Below are positions 1 to 9,109 of a DNA stretch of 12,127 bases, one piece after another. Where the stretch lies: assembly GCA_025363535.1 (NCBI GenBank), contig JANYDP010000269.1, positions 1 to 12,127 of the forward strand, written 5' to 3'. Each line of letters opens with the position of its first letter. The stretch's first letter is position 1. The notes beneath the pieces were generated by a model. It was not told the origin of the DNA. It saw only the letters and a program-made list of their open reading frames with translations, and searched no databases. This DNA comes from Verrucomicrobiota bacterium (GTDB lineage Bacteria; Verrucomicrobiota; Verrucomicrobiia; Limisphaerales; CAIQOK01). A program made the translations under genes and the position numbers.

Positions 1-1121
1 TTGTGCATGAGCGGTTGCGTGCAGTGATGCCCGCCGCGCAACGCCACGCCGCCTTGATCGGCCAGCGTCACCACGTCGTGCGCGTGGACGTCCTTGAGCA
101 GAAAGCTCACAAGCCCGGCGCGTCCGGTCTTCGGGCCGAAAAGGCGGATGTCCTTGAGCGCCGCCAGTTGGTCATAGGCGTAGTTCGCCAGTTCCTGATC
201 GTGCTGCCAGATGTTTTCGCGGCCGATGGCGTCGAGATAATCCATCGCGGCGTGCAAACCAATCGGGCCGGAGATGTCCGGCGTGCCGGCCTCGAACCGA
301 TGCGGCGCTTTCTTGAACTCGGTCTTGTGGTAGCCAACGGACAAAATCATTTCACCGCCGCCTTGATACGGCGGCATGGCGTCGAGCACTTCCGGCCGTC
401 CCCACAGCACGCCGATGCCGGTCGGCCCGCAAATCTTGTGTCCGGAAAACGCGAAGAAATCGCAGCCGAGCGCTTGCACATCTATCGGCATGTGACCTGC
501 GCTTTGCGCGCCATCCACAAGCGTGGTGATGCCGAGCTTGCGGGCGCGGGCGCAGAGTTCGGCGACGGGATTGACGGTGCCCATGGCATTCGAGATGTGA
601 ACCATCGCGAACATCTTCACCTGCTTGGTGAGCAGCGAATCGAGCGTGGACAAATCCAGAACGCCGTCGTCGCCGGTGACGGGGACGTAGGCGAGTTTTG
701 CGCCGGCACGCTGCGCGATCAACTGCCACGAAACGATGTTGCTGTGGTGTTCGACTTCGGTGAGCAGGATGACGTCGCCGGGCTTGAGGTTCGCCGCGCC
801 CCAAGCTGCCGCAACGAGGTTGATGCCTTCGGTGGTGCCGCGCGTGAAGATGATTTCGTCGGCGCTCTTGGCGTTGATGAACTTGGCGGCGCGCGTCCGG
901 GCAGCTTCAAAGGCGTTGGTGGAGCGGTTGCTCAACTCGTGGATGCCGCGATGGACGTTGGCGTTGTCGTGCTCGTAGTAATGGACGAGGGCGTCAATCA
1001 CCGCACGCGGCTTCTGCGACGTGGCGGCGTTGTCGAAATAGATCAGCGGCTTGCCGTGAACCTGCTGGTTGAGGATCGGAAAGTCGGCGCGCAGCCTCGC
1101 CCAATCAATGCTGTTCTTCAT
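1..1121 (-). CDS. sufS: Cysteine desulfurase SufS (group II aminotransferase class V). Start is ATG at 1121; the C-terminus is cut off by the left window edge.
   Basis: Manual translation of the minus strand from 1121 gives MKNSIDWARLRADFPILNQQVHGKPLIYFDNAATSQKPRAVIDALVHYYEHDNANVHRGIHELS...SGHKICGPTGIGVLWGRPEVLDAMPPYQGGGEMI...RFEAGTPDISGPIGL...RGGHHCTQPLM. The PLP-lysine motif SGHK and the active-site region RxGHHC are present, and the whole sequence aligns with E. coli SufS. The reading frame stays open to position 1, which is why it is absent from the supplied ORF track. Confidence 0.9.
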   Translation of the reverse strand, partial: MKNSIDWARLRADFPILNQQVHGKPLIYFDNAATSQKPRAVIDALVHYYEHDNANVHRGIHELSNRSTNAFEAARTRAAKFINAKSADEIIFTRGTTEGINLVAAAWGAANLKPGDVILLTEVEHHSNIVSWQLIAQRAGAKLAYVPVTGDDGVLDLSTLDSLLTKQVKMFAMVHISNAMGTVNPVAELCARARKLGITTLVDGAQSAGHMPIDVQALGCDFFAFSGHKICGPTGIGVLWGRPEVLDAMPPYQGGGEMILSVGYHKTEFKKAPHRFEAGTPDISGPIGLHAAMDYLDAIGRENIWQHDQELANYAYDQLAALKDIRLFGPKTGRAGLVSFLLKDVHAHDVVTLADQGGVALRGGHHCTQPLMH

Positions 1122-1132
1122 CAAAATTATTT

Positions 1133-1197
1133 AACCGCAAAGATCGCAGAGATCACAAAGAAATTTCATCTCTGCGTTCTTTGTGTTCTTTGCGGTT
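1133..1197 (-). promoter_or_regulatory. Complex nested/permuted dyad-symmetry element in the sufT-sufS intergenic spacer. It could fold as alternative RNA hairpins on the operon transcript.
   Basis: Three arm pairs are seen directly. AACCGCAAAGA (1133-1143) pairs with TCTTTGCGGTT (1187-1197). CGCAGAGAT (1145-1153) pairs with ATCTCTGCG (1168-1176). CACAAAGAA (1154-1162) pairs with TTCTTTGTG (1177-1185). The second and third pairings are mutually exclusive or would form a pseudoknot. There is also a direct repeat TTCTTTG x2 (1178-1184, 1187-1193). Confidence 0.5.
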
Positions 1198-1211
1198 ACT
1201 TGTTTTGGTTT

Positions 1212-1763
1212 CTACATCAGCCCCAGTTGCAGCTTCGCCGCTTCGGTCAACATGCTCTGGTTCCATGGCGGATCCCAGACGAGTTCCACCGCCACGTCGT
1301 CCACGGCTTCGATGCACAGGAGTTTGTTCTGCACGTCTTGTTGCAGCACCGGCCCCATGCCGCAACCGGGCGCGGTCAAAGTCATTTTCACCGAGGCGCG
1401 GAAGCTGTTCGCGGCAATCGGCTCGACATGGCAGTCGTAGATCAAGCCGAGGTCCACGATGTTCACGGGGATTTCGGGATCGAAACAAGTTTTCAACTGC
1501 GTCCAGATTTCCTTCTCGACCTGTTCCTGCGTGGCCGGGCCGGAAGTGCCGCTGGAAGTTTTGGTCGCAACCTCCAGGCCCAGGGCATCGGCGTCCTTGC
1601 CTTCGATGCGGAACATGTTGCCGTTGACGATGACGGTGTAGCTGCCGCCAAGCGACTGCGTGATGTGCGCGGACTCGCCTTTTTGCAGCGTGACTTTGGT
1701 GCCAATGGGCACGACGGAGGCTTCCACATCGCGGATCAGACTGACTGGCTCGTTGCTTTGCAT
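1212..1763 (-). CDS. sufT: Long-form SUF-system Fe-S assembly protein SufT (DUF59/MIP18 C-terminal domain with an N-terminal extension), 183 aa.
   Basis: Internal ATG at 1763 gives MQSNEPVSLIRDVEASVVPIGTKVTLQKGE... The C-terminal half (EKEIWTQLKTCFDPEIPVNIVDLGLIYDCHVE...VKMTLTAPGCGMGPVL...) is a typical DUF59 Fe-S assembly domain. It sits between sufU and sufS. The upstream 36 codons of the track ORF (1764-1871) overlap sufU and are discounted. Confidence 0.75.
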   Translation of the reverse strand: MQSNEPVSLIRDVEASVVPIGTKVTLQKGESAHITQSLGGSYTVIVNGNMFRIEGKDADALGLEVATKTSSGTSGPATQEQVEKEIWTQLKTCFDPEIPVNIVDLGLIYDCHVEPIAANSFRASVKMTLTAPGCGMGPVLQQDVQNKLLCIEAVDDVAVELVWDPPWNQSMLTEAAKLQLGLM

Positions 1764-1786
1764 AAATTTACTTTTGGTTGCCGCTG

Positions 1787-2242
1787 TTAATTTTTCTCGG
1801 ACTCGGTGGTCACGGACTGGTCTTCGCCTTTGATTGCAGCGATGAGCGCGTGCCACGACAAAATTGCACATTTCACCCGCGCCGGATAGCGGTAAACGCC
1901 CGCGAACACGGCCAGCTTGCCGACATCCCCGACGATCTTGCCGGTCATGATCATCTCGTGAACCTGGTCAAAGATCGCCTGGACTTCCGCCTTGGTTTTG
2001 CCTTTGACCGCATCGGTCAGCAGGGAGGCGGACGCCTTGGAGATGCAGCAGCCGGACCCAACGAAGCTGGCGTCCTGGATCACGTCGCCGTCGAGCGCGA
2101 GAAACAATTTGAGGTTGTCGCCGCACAGCGGGTTGTGACCCTGGGCCGTGCGCGTGGCCTGCGCCATCTCGTGAAAGTTGCGCGGCTTCTTGCAGTGGTC
2201 CAGGATGACCTGCTGGTAAAGGTCGTTGATGTCGTCGAACAT
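1787..2242 (-). CDS. sufU: SUF-system NifU/IscU-family Fe-S cluster scaffold / sulfur acceptor (SufU-type), 151 aa.
   Basis: ATG at 2242. The protein MFDDINDLYQQVILDHCKKPRNFHEM...HNPLCGDNLKLF...GSGCCISKASASLLT...VKCAILSWHALIAA carries the conserved Cys ligands (CGD, GCxIS, C-terminal Cys) of the SufU/IscU fold. It sits between sufD and sufT. Confidence 0.85.
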   Translation of the reverse strand: MFDDINDLYQQVILDHCKKPRNFHEMAQATRTAQGHNPLCGDNLKLFLALDGDVIQDASFVGSGCCISKASASLLTDAVKGKTKAEVQAIFDQVHEMIMTGKIVGDVGKLAVFAGVYRYPARVKCAILSWHALIAAIKGEDQSVTTESEKN

Positions 2243-2260
2243 TTTCGTGCTGCGTGACGA

Positions 2261-2289
2261 GTGCGGCGTGAACTGATTTCACGCCGCAC
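2261..2289 (-). other. Perfect 12-bp GC-rich hairpin (5-nt loop) in the 57-nt sufD-sufU spacer. It is not followed by a U-tract.
   Basis: GTGCGGCGTGAA (2261-2272), loop CTGAT, TTCACGCCGCAC (2278-2289). The arms are exact reverse complements. It lies between the sufD stop (2300-2302) and the sufU ATG (2242). Confidence 0.6.
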
Positions 2290-2299
2290 GCCTCACTCG

Positions 2300-3625
2300 T
2301 TACTTTCCTGCCAAGTGCGGATTTGCTTCGAGACGATCCCACACCAGCTTGTCCAGTCCCTCGCGGGCTGGTGCGCACTTGATGCGCTCAATGATCTCGC
2401 CGGCAAAGGCGTGGATGAGCATCCGCCGCGCGTTGTCCCGACCGATGCCCCGGGTGCGCAGATAAAAAATGGACTCGTCGTTCAGCTGACCGATGGTCGC
2501 GCCGTGCGTGCATTTCACGTCGTCGGCGTAAATTTCCAATTGCGGTTTCGTGTCGGCGGTGGCGTCGTCGGACAGCAAAAGATTTTTGTTCGTCTGCTTC
2601 GCGTCGGTTTTCTGCGCGATGGGATGCACGTAGATGCGCCCGTGAAAAACGCCCTTTGATTTGTCGTCGAGGATGCCGTTGAAATACTCGTGGCTGGCGC
2701 AATGCGGCTGCGCGTGCTCGACGATCATGTGATGGTCGGCGAGCTGTTCGTCCTTGGTGATGTAAAGGCCGTTCAGCACGCATTCCAAACCTTCGCCCGC
2801 AAGTTTGGTGCGGATGTTGGTGCGGGACAATTTCGCCCCGAGCGCGAAGGAGTGGATGTTCACGTTGCTGGCGCGGCCGAACTCGCCGGAGATCGTCGCC
2901 ATGTGAAACGCGGCGGCGGTTTCATCCTGCAACTTGACGTGTTCGACGTAGGCACTGTCGCCGGCGACGAGTTCCGTGACGGCGTTGGTGAGGTACGCCG
3001 CGCTGCCCGTGCTGAGGTAGCTTTCGATCACCGTGACGCGGCTGTTCGCCTCGGCGATGATGAGGTTGCGTGGATGGATCGCCGCGCCGGATTGCTTCGC
3101 GGACGACAGATAAATCAATTGCACCGGTTCTTCTACTGCGACTCCAGCGGGGACGAAAATGAACGCGCCGTCGGTGAAAAATGCCTGGTTCAACGCGGCG
3201 AAAGCGTTGTCCTTGGTCACGGCGTACTGGCCAAGATGCTTTTCGATCAGCGCGGAATCCTCGGTGAGCGCGGTCGCGAGGTTTTTTATTTTAACGCCAC
3301 CGGCTGCGGGCCTGGTCACGGAAAGTTTGGCCGAGAAAAAGCCATCCACGAAAACGAGCCGACTGCCGGACATGCCGGCAAGGATCGCCGCGCTCAAGGC
3401 CTGGGTTTCCGCGCCGTTCACCACGGTGGCCTGCGCAGGCTGGAACGGCATCTTCGCGATGGGCGCAATGTTGGTAAAGCGCCAGTCCTCGTGTTGCAAC
3501 GTGGGAAAACCCTGCGCGGTGAAACTGGCCAGGCCGGCCGAGCGCAGCGGCACGAGCCAGGCCGGCGACCCGGAGGGATTGGCCAACTGCTCAAATTTGG
3601 TCTGAAATGAATCGGTATTGTTCAT
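2300..3625 (-). CDS. sufD: Fe-S cluster assembly protein SufD (SufB/SufD family), 441 aa.
   Basis: ATG at 3625 gives MNNTDSFQTKFEQ... The C-terminal signature ...KPQLEIYADDVKCTHGATIGQLNDESIFYLRTRGIGRDNARRMLIHAFAGEI is characteristic of the SufBD family. The length (~440 aa) and the lack of an N-terminal Cys-rich SufB region favour SufD. The alternative upstream track start at 3670 adds 15 codons without support. Confidence 0.75.
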   Translation of the reverse strand: MNNTDSFQTKFEQLANPSGSPAWLVPLRSAGLASFTAQGFPTLQHEDWRFTNIAPIAKMPFQPAQATVVNGAETQALSAAILAGMSGSRLVFVDGFFSAKLSVTRPAAGGVKIKNLATALTEDSALIEKHLGQYAVTKDNAFAALNQAFFTDGAFIFVPAGVAVEEPVQLIYLSSAKQSGAAIHPRNLIIAEANSRVTVIESYLSTGSAAYLTNAVTELVAGDSAYVEHVKLQDETAAAFHMATISGEFGRASNVNIHSFALGAKLSRTNIRTKLAGEGLECVLNGLYITKDEQLADHHMIVEHAQPHCASHEYFNGILDDKSKGVFHGRIYVHPIAQKTDAKQTNKNLLLSDDATADTKPQLEIYADDVKCTHGATIGQLNDESIFYLRTRGIGRDNARRMLIHAFAGEIIERIKCAPAREGLDKLVWDRLEANPHLAGK

Positions 3626-3645
3626 GAAATGACGCGAGGCTTGCC

Positions 3646-3689
3646 CGCCAACGAACGGGCATTGTCCCACGCGCAGCCCGTTGGCGCAA
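3646..3689 (-). promoter_or_regulatory. Imperfect inverted repeat overlapping a putative sigma70-type promoter (TTGCGC-N17-GACAAT on the minus strand) in the sufD leader. Candidate operator for an Fe-S or iron-responsive regulator.
   Basis: Arms CGCCAACGAACGGGC (3646-3660) and GCCCGTTGGCG (3676-3686) are reverse complements with a 2-nt bulge. On the minus strand the -35 TTGCGC maps to 3684-3689 and the -10 GACAAT to 3661-3666, with a 17-nt spacer. The sufD ATG at 3625 lies ~35 nt downstream. Confidence 0.35.
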
Positions 3690-3805
3690 GTCCGCCGTGG
3701 GTGTGATTTAGAGGGGCGAAGCCATTGGTTCGTCTTAAGACCGGGGCCAACAAGTTAACCGCTTGGATTTTTGCGCTAAGGAAATGGTTTTCATTCCCTT
3801 TTCGT

Positions 3806-4060
3806 TTATTCCGCCGCCTTTGCTCTGAATGCTTTGCAGGTTCGGCACCAGCGCGCCTGGCCGAACGTGGCCCAGACGAGCAGATAAATTCCCGTGAGCG
3901 CGAGAATGATGCCCGGCACCCAGAACCCCGGAAAGACAAACGCCATCGCCACCGAAGCCGACATGCAAAGGCCGACGATGCTCAACCTAGCTCTGCTCTT
4001 TTGAATCATCTCGCCGCCGCACGATGGGCAGGAGAACTGCTTTTCAGCGGCTTTAGCCAT
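3806..4060 (-). CDS. Small (84 aa) membrane protein. It has an N-terminal CxxC pair, two predicted TM helices and a C-terminal CxxC pair (a split zinc ribbon around a TM hairpin). It is 7 nt downstream of the Mrr gene.
   Basis: ATG at 4060 gives MAKAAEKQFSCPSCGGEMIQKSRARLSIVGLCMSASVAMAFVFPGFWVPGIILALTGIYLLVWATFGQARWCRTCKAFRAKAAE. The hydrophobic segments and cysteine pairs are non-random. The upstream 16 codons of the track ORF would overlap the Mrr stop. Confidence 0.45.
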   Translation of the reverse strand: MAKAAEKQFSCPSCGGEMIQKSRARLSIVGLCMSASVAMAFVFPGFWVPGIILALTGIYLLVWATFGQARWCRTCKAFRAKAAE

Positions 4061-4067
4061 GTCTGAG

Positions 4068-4985
4068 TTATTCGACGCCAGCTTCTGTGGCAAAATAGTC
4101 TGAATCAATCCGCTTCACTTCGTAGGCAGCTTGTGGAGTAACGCCGATGTTGAAATCAATCATGAAGTCCGCAAGTTTTTCGCCATCAATCAGAACGATT
4201 TTGCTTTCGATTCTGGACGCGTAGTTCACCGCGTCTTTGGAAAAATCAGAAGTCGTTATGAAAATGCCTTTCCTGGCCCGCTGTCCCTGCAATGCTCCCG
4301 CGAACTTCTGAATTTCGGGGCGACCGACCGTCGCCTGCCAGCGTTTTGCTTGGATGTAAATGATGTCCAAACCCAGGCGGTCTTCTTTAATGATTCCGTC
4401 AATTCCTTCGTCGCCGCTTTGCCCGATGGCCTCTCCTGCATCTTTGAGCGAACCGCCGTAACCCATTTTCACGAGCAAATCCACGACGACACGCTCGAAG
4501 AACGATGGAGAGCATTTCTTTACCTGCGCGAGAATGTCTCTCGCAAGTGTTTTGCGGAGATTTTCGTACGCTGATTCGAGAGCTTCTTCAGGAGTTTGGC
4601 TTTCATCCTCGTTTGATGTTGGAGATTCTTCCGCTTCCTTTTTCTTGCTGCGCCATTCGACATAGTCAGGAAACGAACGCAGAAATTTCAGGTTGATTTT
4701 TGGTGGTTTCTTTTCAAGAATCTCGCGACCTCGTTGAGTAATTCCGAAAACTCCTCGGGCACGGTTTTCCAAAAGCCCAGCCATGCGCATGTGAACCCTT
4801 GCCCACGCGACGCGATTAGCCAGAACCCTCTGCTGTCCGCTTGGCAGTAGCTGCTTGCGCTCCTGCTCGGTCAGTTTGAAACGCGTTGCAATATTTTCGA
4901 TTGCTTCAGAGTTGTCGTGATCAATTCCATCGCCCGTAAATTCCAAAAGCGGCAGCATAATGGATTGAAAATCTGGAATTGGCAT
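4068..4985 (-). CDS. mrr: Mrr-family type IV restriction endonuclease (Mrr_N winged-helix domain plus Mrr catalytic domain), 305 aa.
   Basis: The N-terminal region MPIPDFQSIMLPLLEFTGDG...LTEQERKQLLPSGQQRVLANRVAWARVHMRMAGLL is Mrr_N-like. The C-terminal region CSPSFFERVVVDLLVKMGYGG...GDEGIDGII...DIIYIQAKRWQATVGRPEIQKF...GIFITTSDFSKDA matches the Mrr_cat PD-(D/E)xK core (D...EGIDG...QAKR). GC is ~45-48%, below the ~62% of the flanks. Confidence 0.85.
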   Translation of the reverse strand: MPIPDFQSIMLPLLEFTGDGIDHDNSEAIENIATRFKLTEQERKQLLPSGQQRVLANRVAWARVHMRMAGLLENRARGVFGITQRGREILEKKPPKINLKFLRSFPDYVEWRSKKKEAEESPTSNEDESQTPEEALESAYENLRKTLARDILAQVKKCSPSFFERVVVDLLVKMGYGGSLKDAGEAIGQSGDEGIDGIIKEDRLGLDIIYIQAKRWQATVGRPEIQKFAGALQGQRARKGIFITTSDFSKDAVNYASRIESKIVLIDGEKLADFMIDFNIGVTPQAAYEVKRIDSDYFATEAGVE

Positions 4986-4998
4986 AACTCTTTTCCAA

Positions 4999-6075
4999 TT
5001 AGCTTTTCAAAAACTCATCTAACGCCGCCTTGGTCACGCGCCAGGTCGAGCCAATCTTTTTGCCTTTGAGATCGCCTTTTTCCAGCGTGGCCAAAACGTC
5101 GGCTTCGCTCACGCCAAGGACGCGCGCCACGTCGGCAGAGCCGAGCAGTTCAATGGCACCACCGGCAATCACCGGCGGCACGCCACCTGCCGGCGCGGCG
5201 GACGGCGTGGCTTGCGGTTGATTCATCGAGGCCATCAGTTGCTGGCCCATCGCGAGGCCCGCGCCGAGTCCCGCACCGGTACCGGCCATTCCACCGGCTG
5301 CGCCGCCTTCTTTGGTCAGCGATTCGGCCATCTGGAATTTCACGTAGTCGTTGAGATTGCCAACGGCAGCCATGCTCGAACGCTTGTCAATCGCGGCCTC
5401 GACTTCGGGCGGCAGCGAGACATTTTCGACAATGAAGCTCGGAATCTCGATGCCGTATTTGGCGGTGACCTGCGGGTTGATGGCCGGCAGCAAGGCTTCG
5501 CCAAGTTCCTGATAGCGCGCGGCGATGTCGAGCACCGGCACTTTGGAGGACGCCAGCGCCTCGGTGAACACGCTGACGATGCGCGAGCGCATGGTGTCGG
5601 CGAATTCGTCGAGCCGGAAATGATCGTCCGTGCCGGCGACTTCCTTCAAAAAGGTTTTCACGTCCACGACCTTGAAATCAAACGTGCCGAAGGCCCGGGC
5701 GCGGACGATGCCGAAATCGGCGTCGCGCATCATGATCGGGTTGGACGTGCCCCATTTGTTGCCGGTGAAGAGGCGCGTGTTGACGTAGTAGAGGTCGGCC
5801 TTGAACGGCGAGTGCAGGCCGTATTTCCAGCCTTTGAGCGTGGAGAGGATCGGGATGTTGTCGGTGGTCAGCGTGTGTTTGCCCGGGCTGAAGGTGTCGC
5901 CAAACTGGCCGAGATACACGAACTGCGCGGTCTGCGATTCGCGGACGATGAGCTGCGCGCCGTTTTTGATTTCCTTGTCCTGGTCGGGATAGCGGAAGGA
6001 GATGGTGTCGCGGGAATCGTCCTGCCACTCGATGATTTCGAGGAACTGTGTTTTGAGATAATCCATGAGGCCCAT
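4999..6075 (-). CDS. SPFH/Band-7 domain protein (Band_7_1 / YdjI-like, 'virion core protein'-type) fused through a Gly/Ala-rich linker to a C-terminal excisionase-family (MerR-like) helix-turn-helix, 358 aa.
   Basis: ATG at 6075 gives MGLMDYLKTQFLEIIEWQDDSRDTISFRYPDQDKEIKNGAQLIVRESQTAQFVYLGQFGDTF...IEIPSFIVENVSLPPEVEAAIDKRSSMAAVGNLNDYVKFQMAE, which is an SPFH fold. A low-complexity GAAGGMAGTGAGLGAGLAMG linker follows. The C-terminus LLGSADVARVLGVSEADVLATLEKGDLKGKKIGSTWRVTKAALDEFL matches the HTH_17/excisionase DNA-binding consensus. The 91 upstream codons of the track ORF overlap the divergent gene and are discounted. Confidence 0.8.
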   Translation of the reverse strand: MGLMDYLKTQFLEIIEWQDDSRDTISFRYPDQDKEIKNGAQLIVRESQTAQFVYLGQFGDTFSPGKHTLTTDNIPILSTLKGWKYGLHSPFKADLYYVNTRLFTGNKWGTSNPIMMRDADFGIVRARAFGTFDFKVVDVKTFLKEVAGTDDHFRLDEFADTMRSRIVSVFTEALASSKVPVLDIAARYQELGEALLPAINPQVTAKYGIEIPSFIVENVSLPPEVEAAIDKRSSMAAVGNLNDYVKFQMAESLTKEGGAAGGMAGTGAGLGAGLAMGQQLMASMNQPQATPSAAPAGGVPPVIAGGAIELLGSADVARVLGVSEADVLATLEKGDLKGKKIGSTWRVTKAALDEFLKS

Positions 6076-6226
6076 AATTTTTTCTTTCGGTTTGGTTTTA
6101 ACGGTTGCCTGTTTTGTTGGCGGTATCATCGGGCGGGCGGCGCGGTCTGTGAAGTACAAATTAACGCGGGGAGTGTAACGGGAATGCGCTTGCGAATTGT
6201 CCGGGAAAAGGAAGAATGACGCCACC

Positions 6227-6982
6227 ATGTCAGCGGAAGCCCTCAACTGCCCGATGTGCGGCACACCGGTCGCCAGCCTTGATGCCACCGGGTGCGACCA
6301 TTGCGGCGCGCGACTGGCGACGGTGGCGTGTCCTTCGTGCTTCGGCATGATTTTTCAGGGCGCGAAGTTTTGTTCGCATTGCGGCGCGAAGGTGGAGCGA
6401 ACGGAGTTGGAGGACGCGACCAAGGCTTCCTGCCCGCACTGCCAACTCAGCCTTGAGGCGGTTACCGTCGGCAGCACCCGACTCAGCGAGTGTCCGAAGT
6501 GCGAAGGAATCTGGATGGACAACGCCTTGTTCAACGAGATTTGCGCCAACCGCGAAGAGCCGTCCGCCGTGCTGGGCATGGCTTTTTCGTTGCCACAACA
6601 TGAAGTGGGCTCGCTGGATTTGAAAGTGCGCTATTATCCGTGCCCAACCTGCAGTGCGCTGATGAACCGGGTGAATTTCGCGCATTGCTCGGGCGTGATC
6701 GTGGACGTCTGCCGCGACCACGGAACCTGGTTTGACAAGGATGAGTTGCGGCGGATCGTGGAATTTATTCGCAACGGCGGACTGGACAGGGCGCGGGCGA
6801 TGGAAATCGAGGAATTGAAGCGGCAACAGCAACAGCTCAAGTCCGCCCAAACCACCAGCGCGATGGAACCCGCTGCGGACTGGCACCACACCGTCGGCTG
6901 GCCCGGAACGAATCGCGATCTGGTGGGTGTGGGAGTTTCGGCCGCAGTGAATGCCCTGTTTGATCTTTTCAATCGACGCTGA
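6227..6982 (+). CDS. Multi-zinc-ribbon protein, 251 aa. It has four N-terminal CxxC pairs, then two TFIIB-type zinc ribbons (zf-TFIIB-like), then a short Gln-rich helical tail.
   Basis: The ATG at 6227 is preceded by AAAAGGAAG (6206-6214). The N-terminus MSAEALNCPMCGTPVASLDATGCDHCGARLATVACPSCFGMIFQGAKFCSHCGAKV carries the four CxxC pairs. Two modules follow: CPHCQLSLEAV...CPKCEGIWMDNALFNEI, and CPTCSALMNRVNFAHCSGVIVDVCRDHGTWFDKDELRRIVEF. The CxxC...(I/V)D.C..C.G.W.D..EL pattern is the zf-TFIIB hallmark. The track ORF starts earlier at a TTG (6197). Confidence 0.75.
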   Translation: MSAEALNCPMCGTPVASLDATGCDHCGARLATVACPSCFGMIFQGAKFCSHCGAKVERTELEDATKASCPHCQLSLEAVTVGSTRLSECPKCEGIWMDNALFNEICANREEPSAVLGMAFSLPQHEVGSLDLKVRYYPCPTCSALMNRVNFAHCSGVIVDVCRDHGTWFDKDELRRIVEFIRNGGLDRARAMEIEELKRQQQQLKSAQTTSAMEPAADWHHTVGWPGTNRDLVGVGVSAAVNALFDLFNRR

Positions 6983-8134: not shown

Positions 8135-9109
8135 ATGAACACAAAAACTCTCGCCCTTTTTTTGGGAGCCGCTTCGCTCGCCGCGCTGCCCTCGGTTGTG
8201 ACCGCCCAGGTCGCTTTCTCCGATGACTTTGATGTCAACCACACCGCCAACTGGAATGTTAACACCGGCGGTGGTGCGAGTGTGAGCACGGCCAACGCTT
8301 TCTTCGACTACAGCACGGTGGGCATTCCCTCGGCGCCGCACTCGACGGGCGGCACCACTTTGGGCATGAAACTCAACGCCAATAACACGGTTGTAGGGCA
8401 GGCGCTGGGCGGGGTGAGCGTATCGCCCAGCGGTCAAAGTTTTACCGGCGATTACCAGTTGCGGATGGACATGTGGCTGAACTTTATCGGGCCGGCACCG
8501 GGCGGTGGCAGCGGCTCAACCCAGATCACCGGCGCTGGCATCGGCACGTCTGGAACGGCGGCCAACTACGCGGGTGTGGCCAATGGTATTTGGTTTGCCG
8601 GCACGGGCGACGGCAATTCGGCGGCTGATTATCGGACCTATACTCCCTCAACCCCCGGCAGCTACGCCTCTGGAAGTGCCGTTTATGCCGCGCCTTCCGG
8701 TGCCATTAACAATTCAGCCGCCTTCTACACCACACTTTTTCCCACCCGCACTGCTCCTGCGGCGCAGACCACACTGTTTGCATCTCAAACCGGAAGTGCT
8801 TTGGCGGGTTCCCTGGGTTGGGCATGGCACGATGTCATCATCAACAAGACTGGCAACTTGGTGTCTTGGAACATTGATGGGACATTGATTGCTTCCTTGG
8901 ACATCACCACGAACGGCGTCCTGAGCGGCAACAACATCATGCTGGTGCAAAGCGACATTAATACGACCGCCTCCACCGATGCGAATGGAACGGCCTTGAA
9001 TTTCGGCTTGTTTGACAATGTGTCCGTGACCATTCCAGAACCGGCCACCGGCAGCTTGTTTGTTTTGGGAGCTTCAGCAGTCTATTTCGCCCGCAAGCGC
9101 CGGGCATAA
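8135..9109 (+). CDS. Secreted PEP-CTERM sorting-domain protein, Gly/Ser/Thr/Asn-rich, 324 aa.
   Basis: The N-terminal signal peptide is MNTKTLALFLGAASLAALPSVVTAQV. The C-terminal IPEPATGSLFVLGASAVYFARKRRA is a canonical PEP-CTERM motif plus TM helix plus Arg-rich tail. The body is low-complexity and rich in N-x-S/T sequons. Confidence 0.8.
   Translation: MNTKTLALFLGAASLAALPSVVTAQVAFSDDFDVNHTANWNVNTGGGASVSTANAFFDYSTVGIPSAPHSTGGTTLGMKLNANNTVVGQALGGVSVSPSGQSFTGDYQLRMDMWLNFIGPAPGGGSGSTQITGAGIGTSGTAANYAGVANGIWFAGTGDGNSAADYRTYTPSTPGSYASGSAVYAAPSGAINNSAAFYTTLFPTRTAPAAQTTLFASQTGSALAGSLGWAWHDVIINKTGNLVSWNIDGTLIASLDITTNGVLSGNNIMLVQSDINTTASTDANGTALNFGLFDNVSVTIPEPATGSLFVLGASAVYFARKRRA

Follow-up and report, generated by a model that had tools for sequence, protein, structure and literature searches.

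SPFH–helix-turn-helix proteins of Verrucomicrobiota and other bacteria as one form of a modular Band_7_1 family with a conserved zinc-ribbon partner

Introduction

SPFH proteins are ubiquitous and mechanistically obscure, and their Band_7_1 branch has, to our knowledge, essentially one studied member, YdjI (also known as SamI) of Bacillus subtilis. Here we describe a gene of a Verrucomicrobiota bacterium from the Limisphaerales (assembly GCA_025363535.1) that encodes a Band_7_1 SPFH domain and a helix-turn-helix (HTH) domain of the HTH_17 family in one polypeptide, hereafter called SPFH-HTH. The stretch of DNA that was analyzed, 12,127 nucleotides (nt) of contig JANYDP010000269.1, is referred to as the window.

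YdjI/SamI is a soluble, self-interacting protein in which a low-complexity region is followed by a C-terminal zinc finger (PMC8581546; bioRxiv 10.64898/2026.02.06.704340). It has been linked to PspA recruitment and needs the membrane proteins YdjG and YdjH for its localization to the membrane (PMC8581546). YdjG consists of two zinc ribbons, a YpeB-related NTF2-like domain and a transmembrane segment, while YdjI has been described as a band-7 domain with a C-terminal zinc ribbon (PMC11237479). Loss of SamI in B. subtilis is reported to cause global transcriptional changes. Outside of this system, PF13421 (Band_7_1) is the commonest partner domain of SHOCT (PMC3581485), which has been proposed to anchor domains at the inner leaflet, and ZnR-HTH-SHOCT proteins have been proposed to connect membrane signals with transcription (PMC11237479).

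For the C-terminal part of the protein, the systems to compare are DNA binders like RacA and BldC. RacA is a MerR-like winged HTH (wHTH) protein that anchors the chromosome at the cell pole. BldC contacts phosphates and bases of its DNA with the recognition helix (K26, T27, T29, R30, W31, and K33) and the wing (H46, R47, and R48); the substitutions R30A or H46E abolish DNA binding, RacA uses an Arg equivalent to R30, and BldC-type domains without a dimerization domain bind DNA as cooperative head-to-tail multimers (PMC5859096).

An SPFH core and a winged helix in one conserved polypeptide

The SPFH-HTH gene encodes 358 amino acids (aa) on the minus strand and fills positions 6075 to 4999 exactly, stop codon included; the minus strand is a single unbroken frame here, while a plus-strand translation of the same interval is broken by stops. 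An earlier note on this DNA had read the gene as an N-terminal Band_7_1 SPFH domain and a C-terminal excisionase-type HTH in a single polypeptide, and all of this is borne out by profile searches and homologues. Band_7_1 (PF13421) is matched with 286.4 bits against a gathering cutoff of 24 and over profile positions 2 to 210 of 211 (see Table 1 for coordinates), and HTH_17 (PF12728) with 33.1 bits against a cutoff of 27 (E 6.7e-08), with orthologues scoring 35 to 38 bits for the latter. The NCBIfam profile TIGR01764 “excise” reaches 27.6 bits, slightly below its cutoff of 28.8. Both domains are present in all 120 best database homologues, one database protein (P0001), on a contig of 12,127 bp, is identical to SPFH-HTH, and the orthologues translated from 85 independent loci all have a length of 347 to 372 aa and contain both parts. 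The gene is thus real and well conserved, catalogued by databases yet unstudied.

Full-length relatives were found in at least 512 species genomes by a scan of one-genome-per-species contigs, and the best 80 of them all match residues 1 to 356 or 358 at 66% to 85% identity. Most belong to the Verrucomicrobiota (Limisphaerales, Opitutaceae, Verrucomicrobiaceae, and Chthoniobacterales), and others come from Acidobacteriota, Casimicrobiaceae and other Betaproteobacteria, a Kapaibacterium, and a metagenome-assembled genome (MAG) of the Lentisphaerales; it seems that many Verrucomicrobiota and Acidobacteriota of soil and fresh water use the HTH_17 form of this scaffold. The architecture is called “SPFH and helix-turn-helix domain-containing protein” in RefSeq and “excisionase family DNA binding protein” in JGI already, though our literature searches for SPFH with HTH_17 or for “SPFH and helix-turn-helix” found no paper on the combination. 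The fusion had been called unexpected in the earlier note, which is hard to maintain for an architecture that is spread over several phyla and named by two databases. Among viral contigs, none of the pattern matches could be confirmed as a relative. Several MAG contigs labelled “uncultured Bifidobacterium/Bifidobacteriaceae” (L005, L012, L014, L019, and L023) carry a copy of the gene that is 81% to 85% identical; these taxonomic labels look wrong, and most of the contigs also share the PDDEXK_3 and partner genes of verrucomicrobial loci that are described below.

HTH_17 is one of several alternative heads on a common Band_7_1 chassis

An exhaustive HMMER search of 1.84 billion representatives returned 4827 relatives, and 75 full-length-looking proteins from the best 150 were scanned with Pfam. 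Their C-terminal modules are zinc ribbons (double/DZR or other) in 19 cases, SHOCT in 18, GYF_2 in 17, HTH_17 in 2, and TerD in 1, so that the HTH_17 tail is one of at least four alternative heads on a common chassis. The supposedly surprising fusion is therefore one among several interchangeable C-terminal modules of Band_7_1 proteins, and the HTH_17 form makes up few clusters at 50% identity (the 2 of 75 representatives) yet occurs in many genomes.

Core and head are joined by a segment that is free of Asp, Glu, Lys, and Arg between E256 and E309 (residues 257 to 308, 52 residues). Its first half is Gly-zipper-like (AGLGAGLAMGQQ, also delimited as GGMAGTGAGLGAGLAMGQQ) and conserved among close homologues, with A264, A268, L270-L274, and G277-Q279 invariant in 36 of them; variation is confined to the second half, which is rich in Pro, Ala, and Thr. 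Of the 75 diverse Band_7_1 representatives, 53 have a comparable GxxxG-type stretch, which argues that it is a family feature and more than a mere spacer. The description of this region as a flexible linker in the earlier note hence fits the variable second half but not the conserved first half. No transmembrane segment was found in SPFH-HTH, whose maximum Kyte-Doolittle mean over 19 residues (KD19) is 1.41. With a Band_7_1 core lacking a membrane anchor, a low-complexity segment of 52 residues, and a small C-terminal module, the protein has the makeup of YdjI/SamI. When the full-length sequence or the isolated HTH was searched against PDB sequences, no match was significant (HflC, E 0.054), and the ATP synthase c-subunit matches obtained there only reflect the Gly-rich segment.

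GYF domains are peptide binders that bind proline-rich peptides. Many GYF_2-tailed Band_7_1 proteins (e.g., P0142, P0147, P0190, and P0260) terminate in a poly-proline run, PPPPPP, which makes head-to-tail self-association of these scaffolds conceivable. The HTH_17 form likewise has a Pro-rich stretch immediately before its HTH.

A zinc-ribbon transmembrane protein is the conserved partner

The neighborhoods of 84 related loci were compared within 6 kb on either side by tblastn and all-against-all clustering of open reading frames (ORFs). A protein of about 368 aa is encoded directly downstream on the same strand in 72 of the 84 loci and across phyla, and this is the only other gene family conserved within that distance. 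Its N-terminus carries two TFIIB-type zinc ribbons that stay below the Pfam threshold (up to 28.3 bits against a cutoff of 29), followed by a highly conserved globular region and a C-terminal transmembrane helix (KD19 2.82). Profile searches of this partner against Pfam, NCBIfam, and PDB gave subthreshold zinc-ribbon matches and one weak PepSY match only. The same gene pair is present in the cultured isolate Comamonas odontotermitis, where RefSeq names the partner “TFIIB-type zinc ribbon-containing protein”. In strain WLL of this species, SPFH-HTH has the accession WP_224153175 and the partner WP_224153207. The partner also follows Band_7_1 genes with a GYF_2 tail in Vibrio coralliilyticus, Tsukamurella tyrosinosolvens, and Paracoccus ferrooxidans (hhalign probability 100%, E 1e-45 to 1e-57).

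The two core genes are separated by as little as 3 and as much as about 2000 nt, with varied genes in between, from which we conclude that this slot accumulates insertions as a hotspot and that the Mrr gene of the window is one of them. In relatives at 91% to 94% identity, the slot is filled with a DUF3592 gene, an 85-aa gene, and a PDDEXK_3 gene before the partner follows. Overall, a gene of the nuclease-fold family PDDEXK_3 lies between SPFH-HTH and the partner in 10 to 11 related loci. These observations on the slot refer to L004 (positions 8235 to 9035), L005, L006, L013, L014, L019, L021, L023, L025, L037, and L085 to L088.

Some neighbors of GYF_2-tailed genes may be worth recording. On plasmid NZ_CP048695 of V. 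coralliilyticus (L090, positions 1 to 4114), the GYF_2-tailed gene and its partner adjoin opposite-strand genes for a TIR-domain protein and a “TRAFs-binding domain” protein, possibly a defense island. On pFER4 of P. ferrooxidans (L093, positions 1219 to 2394), the Band_7_1+GYF_2/partner pair is immediately preceded by a gene for a TelA-like “toxic anion resistance protein”, and one Band_7_1 representative (P0143-type) is fused to a TerD domain. The TelA-like neighbor and the TerD fusion hint at a link of Band_7_1 scaffolds to Ter-type stress systems.

The winged helix has the fold of DNA binders and has lost the BldC-type contact residues

An AlphaFold2 (AF2) model of residues 296 to 358 shows a strand-helix-helix-strand-strand-helix arrangement with a predicted local distance difference test score (pLDDT) of 84 to 87 in the fold. 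The top Foldseek matches of this model are BldC, the excisionase RdfS, Xis of mycobacteriophage Pukovnik, TraN, the MerR protein HiNmlR, and RacA at a root-mean-square deviation (rmsd) of 1.5 to 2.2 Å and about 26% identity, with a Foldseek probability of 1.00 for BldC, RdfS, and Xis (rmsd 1.5 to 1.7 Å). Since the best PDB matches are BldC-DNA complexes together with these other proteins, the fold is that of DNA binders, specifically the excisionase/MerR-like wHTH fold.

The surface of the domain suggests something else. We aligned BldC by hand, anchored on the residues named in PMC5859096; in this alignment, K26 corresponds to A325, T27 to the invariant D326, T29 to L328, R30 to the variable A329, W31 to T330, and K33 to E332, while H46, R47, and R48 of the wing fall on a wing tip of Gly, Ser, or Thr. 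The contact residues of excisionase/MerR-like DNA binders are thus missing at the hand-aligned BldC positions. The net charge of 81 distinct orthologue domains lies between -3 and +1 with a median of 0. Residues invariant across phyla are A317, LGV320-322, E324, D326-V327, G334, L336-K337, K340-I-G342, R346, and F355-L356, and the conserved K337, K339, K340, and R346 leave some basic surface. As judged from its sequence, the HTH is a divergent member of the fold, and what is conserved in it does not resemble a reader of specific DNA sequences, though it may make weak wing-mediated contacts with nucleic acid or bind another anionic ligand.

The upstream region contains a conserved promoter and no recognizable operator

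A promoter scan predicted a sigma-70-like site upstream of the SPFH-HTH gene with TTCACA (6153-6148), a 17-nt spacer, and GATGAT (6130-6125). It is preceded at fixed spacing by the conserved blocks GTTACA (6179-6174) and TGTACT (6158-6153). In 25 verrucomicrobial loci, four blocks (ATTACA, T[GA]T[AG]CT, TTC[AC]C[AT], and [GA]ATNAT) recur at identical spacing, and outside this lineage the upstream sequence is unrelated. The four blocks look like two promoter-like pairs of hexamers that overlap; the upstream pair has an unusual spacer of 15 nt, and that of the other pair is 17 nt.

No inverted repeat was found in the intergenic/upstream region of the window. Some relatives show apparent 7-bp palindromes (CACAATT..AATTGTG and CATAATT..AATTATG), but no palindrome covaries in a fixed register across the 25 loci, where complementarity is 4.16 of 8 compared to 4.25 in permutations (p = 0.85). 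An autoregulatory operator was therefore rejected, as inverted repeats and covariation are lacking and promoter hexamers account for the conserved blocks; nothing found here speaks positively for autoregulation of the gene.

The N-termini of 35 aligned homologues, which read MGLxDYLK at this point, place the true start at the ATG at position 6075, while the mechanical ORF reaches 6348 (449 aa). The 91-codon extension at 6076-6348 of the minus strand overlaps the start of the divergent gene upstream and has neither a Pfam match nor homologue support, so that gene callers could be misled. Upstream extensions of the same sort are probable in several of the database entries of 374 to 494 aa.

Neighbors of SPFH-HTH in the window

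The features of the window are listed in Table 1. The Mrr gene, a modification-dependent (type IV) restriction endonuclease, begins 13 nt past the SPFH-HTH stop and has a GC content of 0.47 to 0.51 compared to 0.58 to 0.63 in its flanks. None of the 84 related loci has Mrr downstream of SPFH-HTH, which identifies the gene as a recent, lineage-specific insertion that has entered between the core genes and does not belong to the conserved module.

The last gene of the local same-strand run, ahead of sufD, encodes an 84-aa protein that is 63% identical to an 83-aa gene product in the same slot of locus L001. The N-terminus of the 84-aa protein (KQFSCPSCGGE) is similar to the partner's first ribbon (39% over 36 aa, E 0.001), and the protein might be a remnant of, or a minimal substitute for, the missing partner. 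The divergent 251-aa multi-zinc-ribbon gene on the other side is kept in position in just 12 to 13 of the 84 loci (Limisphaerales-type, 47% to 59% identity). It was rejected as the conserved partner on this ground and is a lineage-specific neighbor.

Table 1. Features of the window around the SPFH-HTH gene.
Feature	Positions	Strand	Evidence
SPFH (Band_7_1) + HTH_17 gene, complete	4999..6075	-	ATG at 6075, TAA at 5001-4999; translation, Pfam, homologue N-termini
Band_7_1/SPFH domain, residues 27-236	5368..5997	-	PF13421 E 1.6e-85; PF01145 E 5.3e-10
Uncharged Gly/Ala/Pro-rich segment, residues 256-308	5152..5310	-	D/E/K/R absent between E256 and E309
Excisionase/MerR-like winged helix (HTH_17), residues 310-357	5005..5148	-	PF12728; AF2 model; Foldseek
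Conserved promoter region of the SPFH-HTH gene	6125..6179	-	Promoter scan; blocks equally spaced in 25 related loci
Mrr-type type IV (modification-dependent) restriction endonuclease	4068..4985	-	Mrr_N 6e-29, Mrr_cat 3.2e-38 (Pfam); PADLOC mREase_IV 1.5e-89
84-aa protein with a zinc ribbon and two transmembrane helices	3806..4060	-	Translation; weak TIGR04104 match; maximum KD19 2.11
Divergent 251-aa multi-zinc-ribbon protein, DZR and two TFIIB-type ribbons, hydrophobic C-terminal tail	6227..6982	+	Zn_ribbon_TFIIB 6.4e-12, DZR 4.7e-11 (Pfam)

The context of the window is otherwise housekeeping (suf genes, lpxK, and a glycosyl hydrolase). It contains no integrase, and no integrase family or mobile element is conserved in the 84 related loci. 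An excisionase in the sense of a recombination directionality factor is thus not what we see: the domain is fused to a 300-aa scaffold, an integrase is lacking, and there are no relatives on viral contigs. For the latter reason, a phage origin was rejected as well. With PADLOC v2, the only match of SPFH-HTH is mad1 (MADS1 HTH) with 23.9 bits over residues 314 to 357, which is the generic HTH, and the SPFH part has no match. We rejected a defense-system reading because of this generic match and because the Mrr linkage is unique to this contig. The SPFH-HTH fusion is real, but it is not rare, and it gives no evidence of a function in mobile elements or on phage DNA; the proposal in the earlier note that the protein anchors such DNA at the membrane has found no positive support.

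Possible function of SPFH-HTH and alternative explanations

It seems somewhat probable that SPFH-HTH is a sub-membrane SPFH scaffold and that its winged helix is a swappable adaptor head with a non-canonical ligand. By analogy to YdjI/SamI, the protein would be soluble and form oligomers, and it would follow what appears to be a fixed layout of Band_7_1 proteins in which the SPFH core is succeeded by an uncharged Gly-zipper/Pro-rich segment and one small interchangeable C-terminal module. The tail-anchored zinc-ribbon partner would bring this scaffold to the inner side of the cytoplasmic membrane, similar to what YdjG and YdjH do for YdjI, and it most likely recognizes the conserved core, because the same partner accompanies HTH_17- and GYF_2-tailed forms. 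The C-terminal heads may then be free on uncharged tethers of around 50 residues and be displayed in many copies as multivalent adaptors. For the HTH, we prefer a non-canonical ligand of low specificity, which could be a protein client or nucleic acid bound weakly and multivalently via the conserved basic wing; classical sequence-specific operator binding is not favored.

Several observations weigh against this explanation. The partner gene of about 368 aa is absent from the window itself, and homology of the partner to YdjG is suggested by the published architecture of the latter and by a nonsignificant PepSY/YpeB match of one partner orthologue (E 0.22). Neither PspA nor TPM-domain (YdjH-like) genes gave a Pfam match in the annotated neighborhoods, and there is no third conserved family in the 84 loci, so that the analogy to Bacillus is incomplete; the link of the YdjI subtype to PspA recruitment, which the earlier note had brought up, is thus sound for Bacillus according to the literature (PMC8581546) but has no counterpart in the loci that we examined. 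A full-length AF2 model built from 36 close homologues only reached a pLDDT of 48 and is unusable for the SPFH core or domain packing, which is why the separate HTH model was used alone. Finally, all close structural neighbors of the HTH model are DNA binders, and the remainder of the domain that is both basic and invariant lies in the first wing strand and its surroundings (L-K-G-K-K-I-G..W-R..K/R), which keeps genuine DNA binding plausible.

Among the alternatives, an artefact in which a separate SPFH gene and a small excisionase gene were fused by a frameshift or sequencing error has next to no chance of being correct. The linker is indeed of the low-complexity, GC-rich and hence indel-prone type, and the window is a short metagenomic contig, but the reading frame is continuous, both domains recur in all 120 best database matches, and architecture and length are repeated in 85 independent loci that include complete chromosomes and the cultured Comamonas isolate. 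We regard this reading, which the earlier note had named as what would undo its proposal, as already refuted. A membrane-sequestered transcription factor, whose winged helix would bind a specific operator and be captured or released when membrane stress is sensed through the SPFH/partner complex, thereby changing its own operon or a regulon, also seems rather unlikely. It would fit the above-cutoff HTH_17 match, the nearest folds being DNA binders of transcription and recombination, the conserved basic cluster in the wing, the transcriptional effects reported for loss of SamI, the membrane signal-transcription link proposed for ZnR-HTH-SHOCT proteins (PMC11237479), and the AT-rich blocks conserved upstream of the -35 element in 25 loci. 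However, the Arg/Lys contacts of BldC and RacA are missing from the recognition helix, which has an invariant Glu324 and Asp326, on a domain with a net charge around 0; the window has no upstream inverted repeat, complementary covariation is missing, and sigma-70-like hexamers explain the blocks, which moreover occur in a single lineage of Verrucomicrobiota, in contrast to the cross-phylum conservation of the protein. In addition, the equivalent slot of paralogues is occupied by GYF_2 or SHOCT, which are not DNA-reading domains. The idea in the earlier note that the HTH is released from the membrane to DNA upon stress consequently has no positive support.

Even less convincing, and in our view quite improbable, is a DNA-membrane tether or defense accessory in which many weak winged helices on an SPFH ring would keep the chromosome, or foreign DNA entering the cell, at the membrane by non-specific binding, maybe together with the adjacent Mrr. 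RacA as a chromosome anchor is among the structural matches, BldC-type domains bind DNA cooperatively without dimerization domain, Mrr is directly adjacent, nuclease-fold PDDEXK_3 genes occupy the same slot in 10 to 11 related loci, and PADLOC gives its weak match to MADS1 HTH. Yet the Mrr linkage is not conserved, as it is unique among 85 loci and of foreign GC content, the mad1 match covers the generic HTH only and leaves the SPFH part unmatched, viral-contig relatives are lacking, the genomic context is one of housekeeping genes, and an HTH that is acidic or nearly neutral is poorly suited to bind DNA non-specifically. As a bolder and rather doubtful possibility, membrane-recruited rings or cages could display dozens of weak winged helices that bind DNA by avidity like BldC-type cooperative multimers and thereby couple the nucleoid or specific AT-rich regions to sites of membrane stress. 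Verrucomicrobiota, Acidobacteriota, and some Betaproteobacteria would then have a tether between nucleoid and membrane, or a switch from stress to transcription, that uses a double-zinc-ribbon anchor and works independently of PspA.

Comparison with known systems

The HTH of our protein is alike in fold and size to BldC (6AMA/6AMK), RdfS (8DGL), and Pukovnik Xis (4J2N), with query-normalized TM-scores of 0.64 to 0.69 and an rmsd of 1.5 to 1.7 Å over 47 to 50 residues at 26% identity, and it shares with BldC/excisionase wHTH proteins that it has no dimerization domain of its own. However, BldC, RdfS, and Xis are small, free-standing, and strongly basic DNA binders, whereas the HTH described here is tethered to a scaffold, has a net charge of about 0, lacks equivalents of BldC K26, T27, T29, R30, K33, H46, R47, and R48 in the hand alignment, and comes without integrase or mobile-element context. 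RacA of B. subtilis, which matches the fold with an rmsd of 1.8 Å, couples its MerR-like winged helix to a membrane-associated assembly and is thus a precedent for DNA held at the membrane. Its base-contacting Arg, equivalent to BldC R30, is Ala or variable in SPFH-HTH, and RacA couples via a coiled coil to DivIVA, whereas the HTH here sits on an SPFH domain.

Paralogues with GYF_2, SHOCT, or zinc-ribbon tails (V. coralliilyticus WP_021456962, Paracoccus, Tsukamurella, and Ralstonia) share with SPFH-HTH the core, the Gly-rich segment, and the place of the terminal module. Those with a GYF_2 tail also have the same downstream partner and differ from the HTH_17 form in their head domain, whereas the SHOCT-tailed gene of Ralstonia is found in a polyamine operon with DUF350 and DUF4178 (as in PMC11237479) and not with the zinc-ribbon transmembrane partner. 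These relationships suggest an organizing rule for the Band_7_1 branch, namely that the core and the tail-anchored zinc-ribbon partner stay constant while the head (zinc ribbon, GYF_2, or HTH_17) is swappable. If the heads select clients, a comparison of heads would make the function of the scaffold testable, and the cultured Comamonas isolate with the same gene pair is a possible test organism.

The closest described system is YdjI/SamI of B. subtilis, encoded in the pspA-ydjGHI (pspA-samGHI) operon. Both YdjI/SamI and SPFH-HTH have a Band_7_1 core without membrane anchor, a low-complexity segment, and one small C-terminal module, and the relatives of SPFH-HTH are paired with a protein whose likeness to YdjG is one of architecture only (two zinc ribbons, a globular domain, and a transmembrane segment). 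The C-terminal module of YdjI/SamI is a zinc ribbon, whereas that of SPFH-HTH is an HTH_17 winged helix without CxxC motifs, and the SPFH gene comes first in the pair among SPFH-HTH relatives but last in the Bacillus operon.

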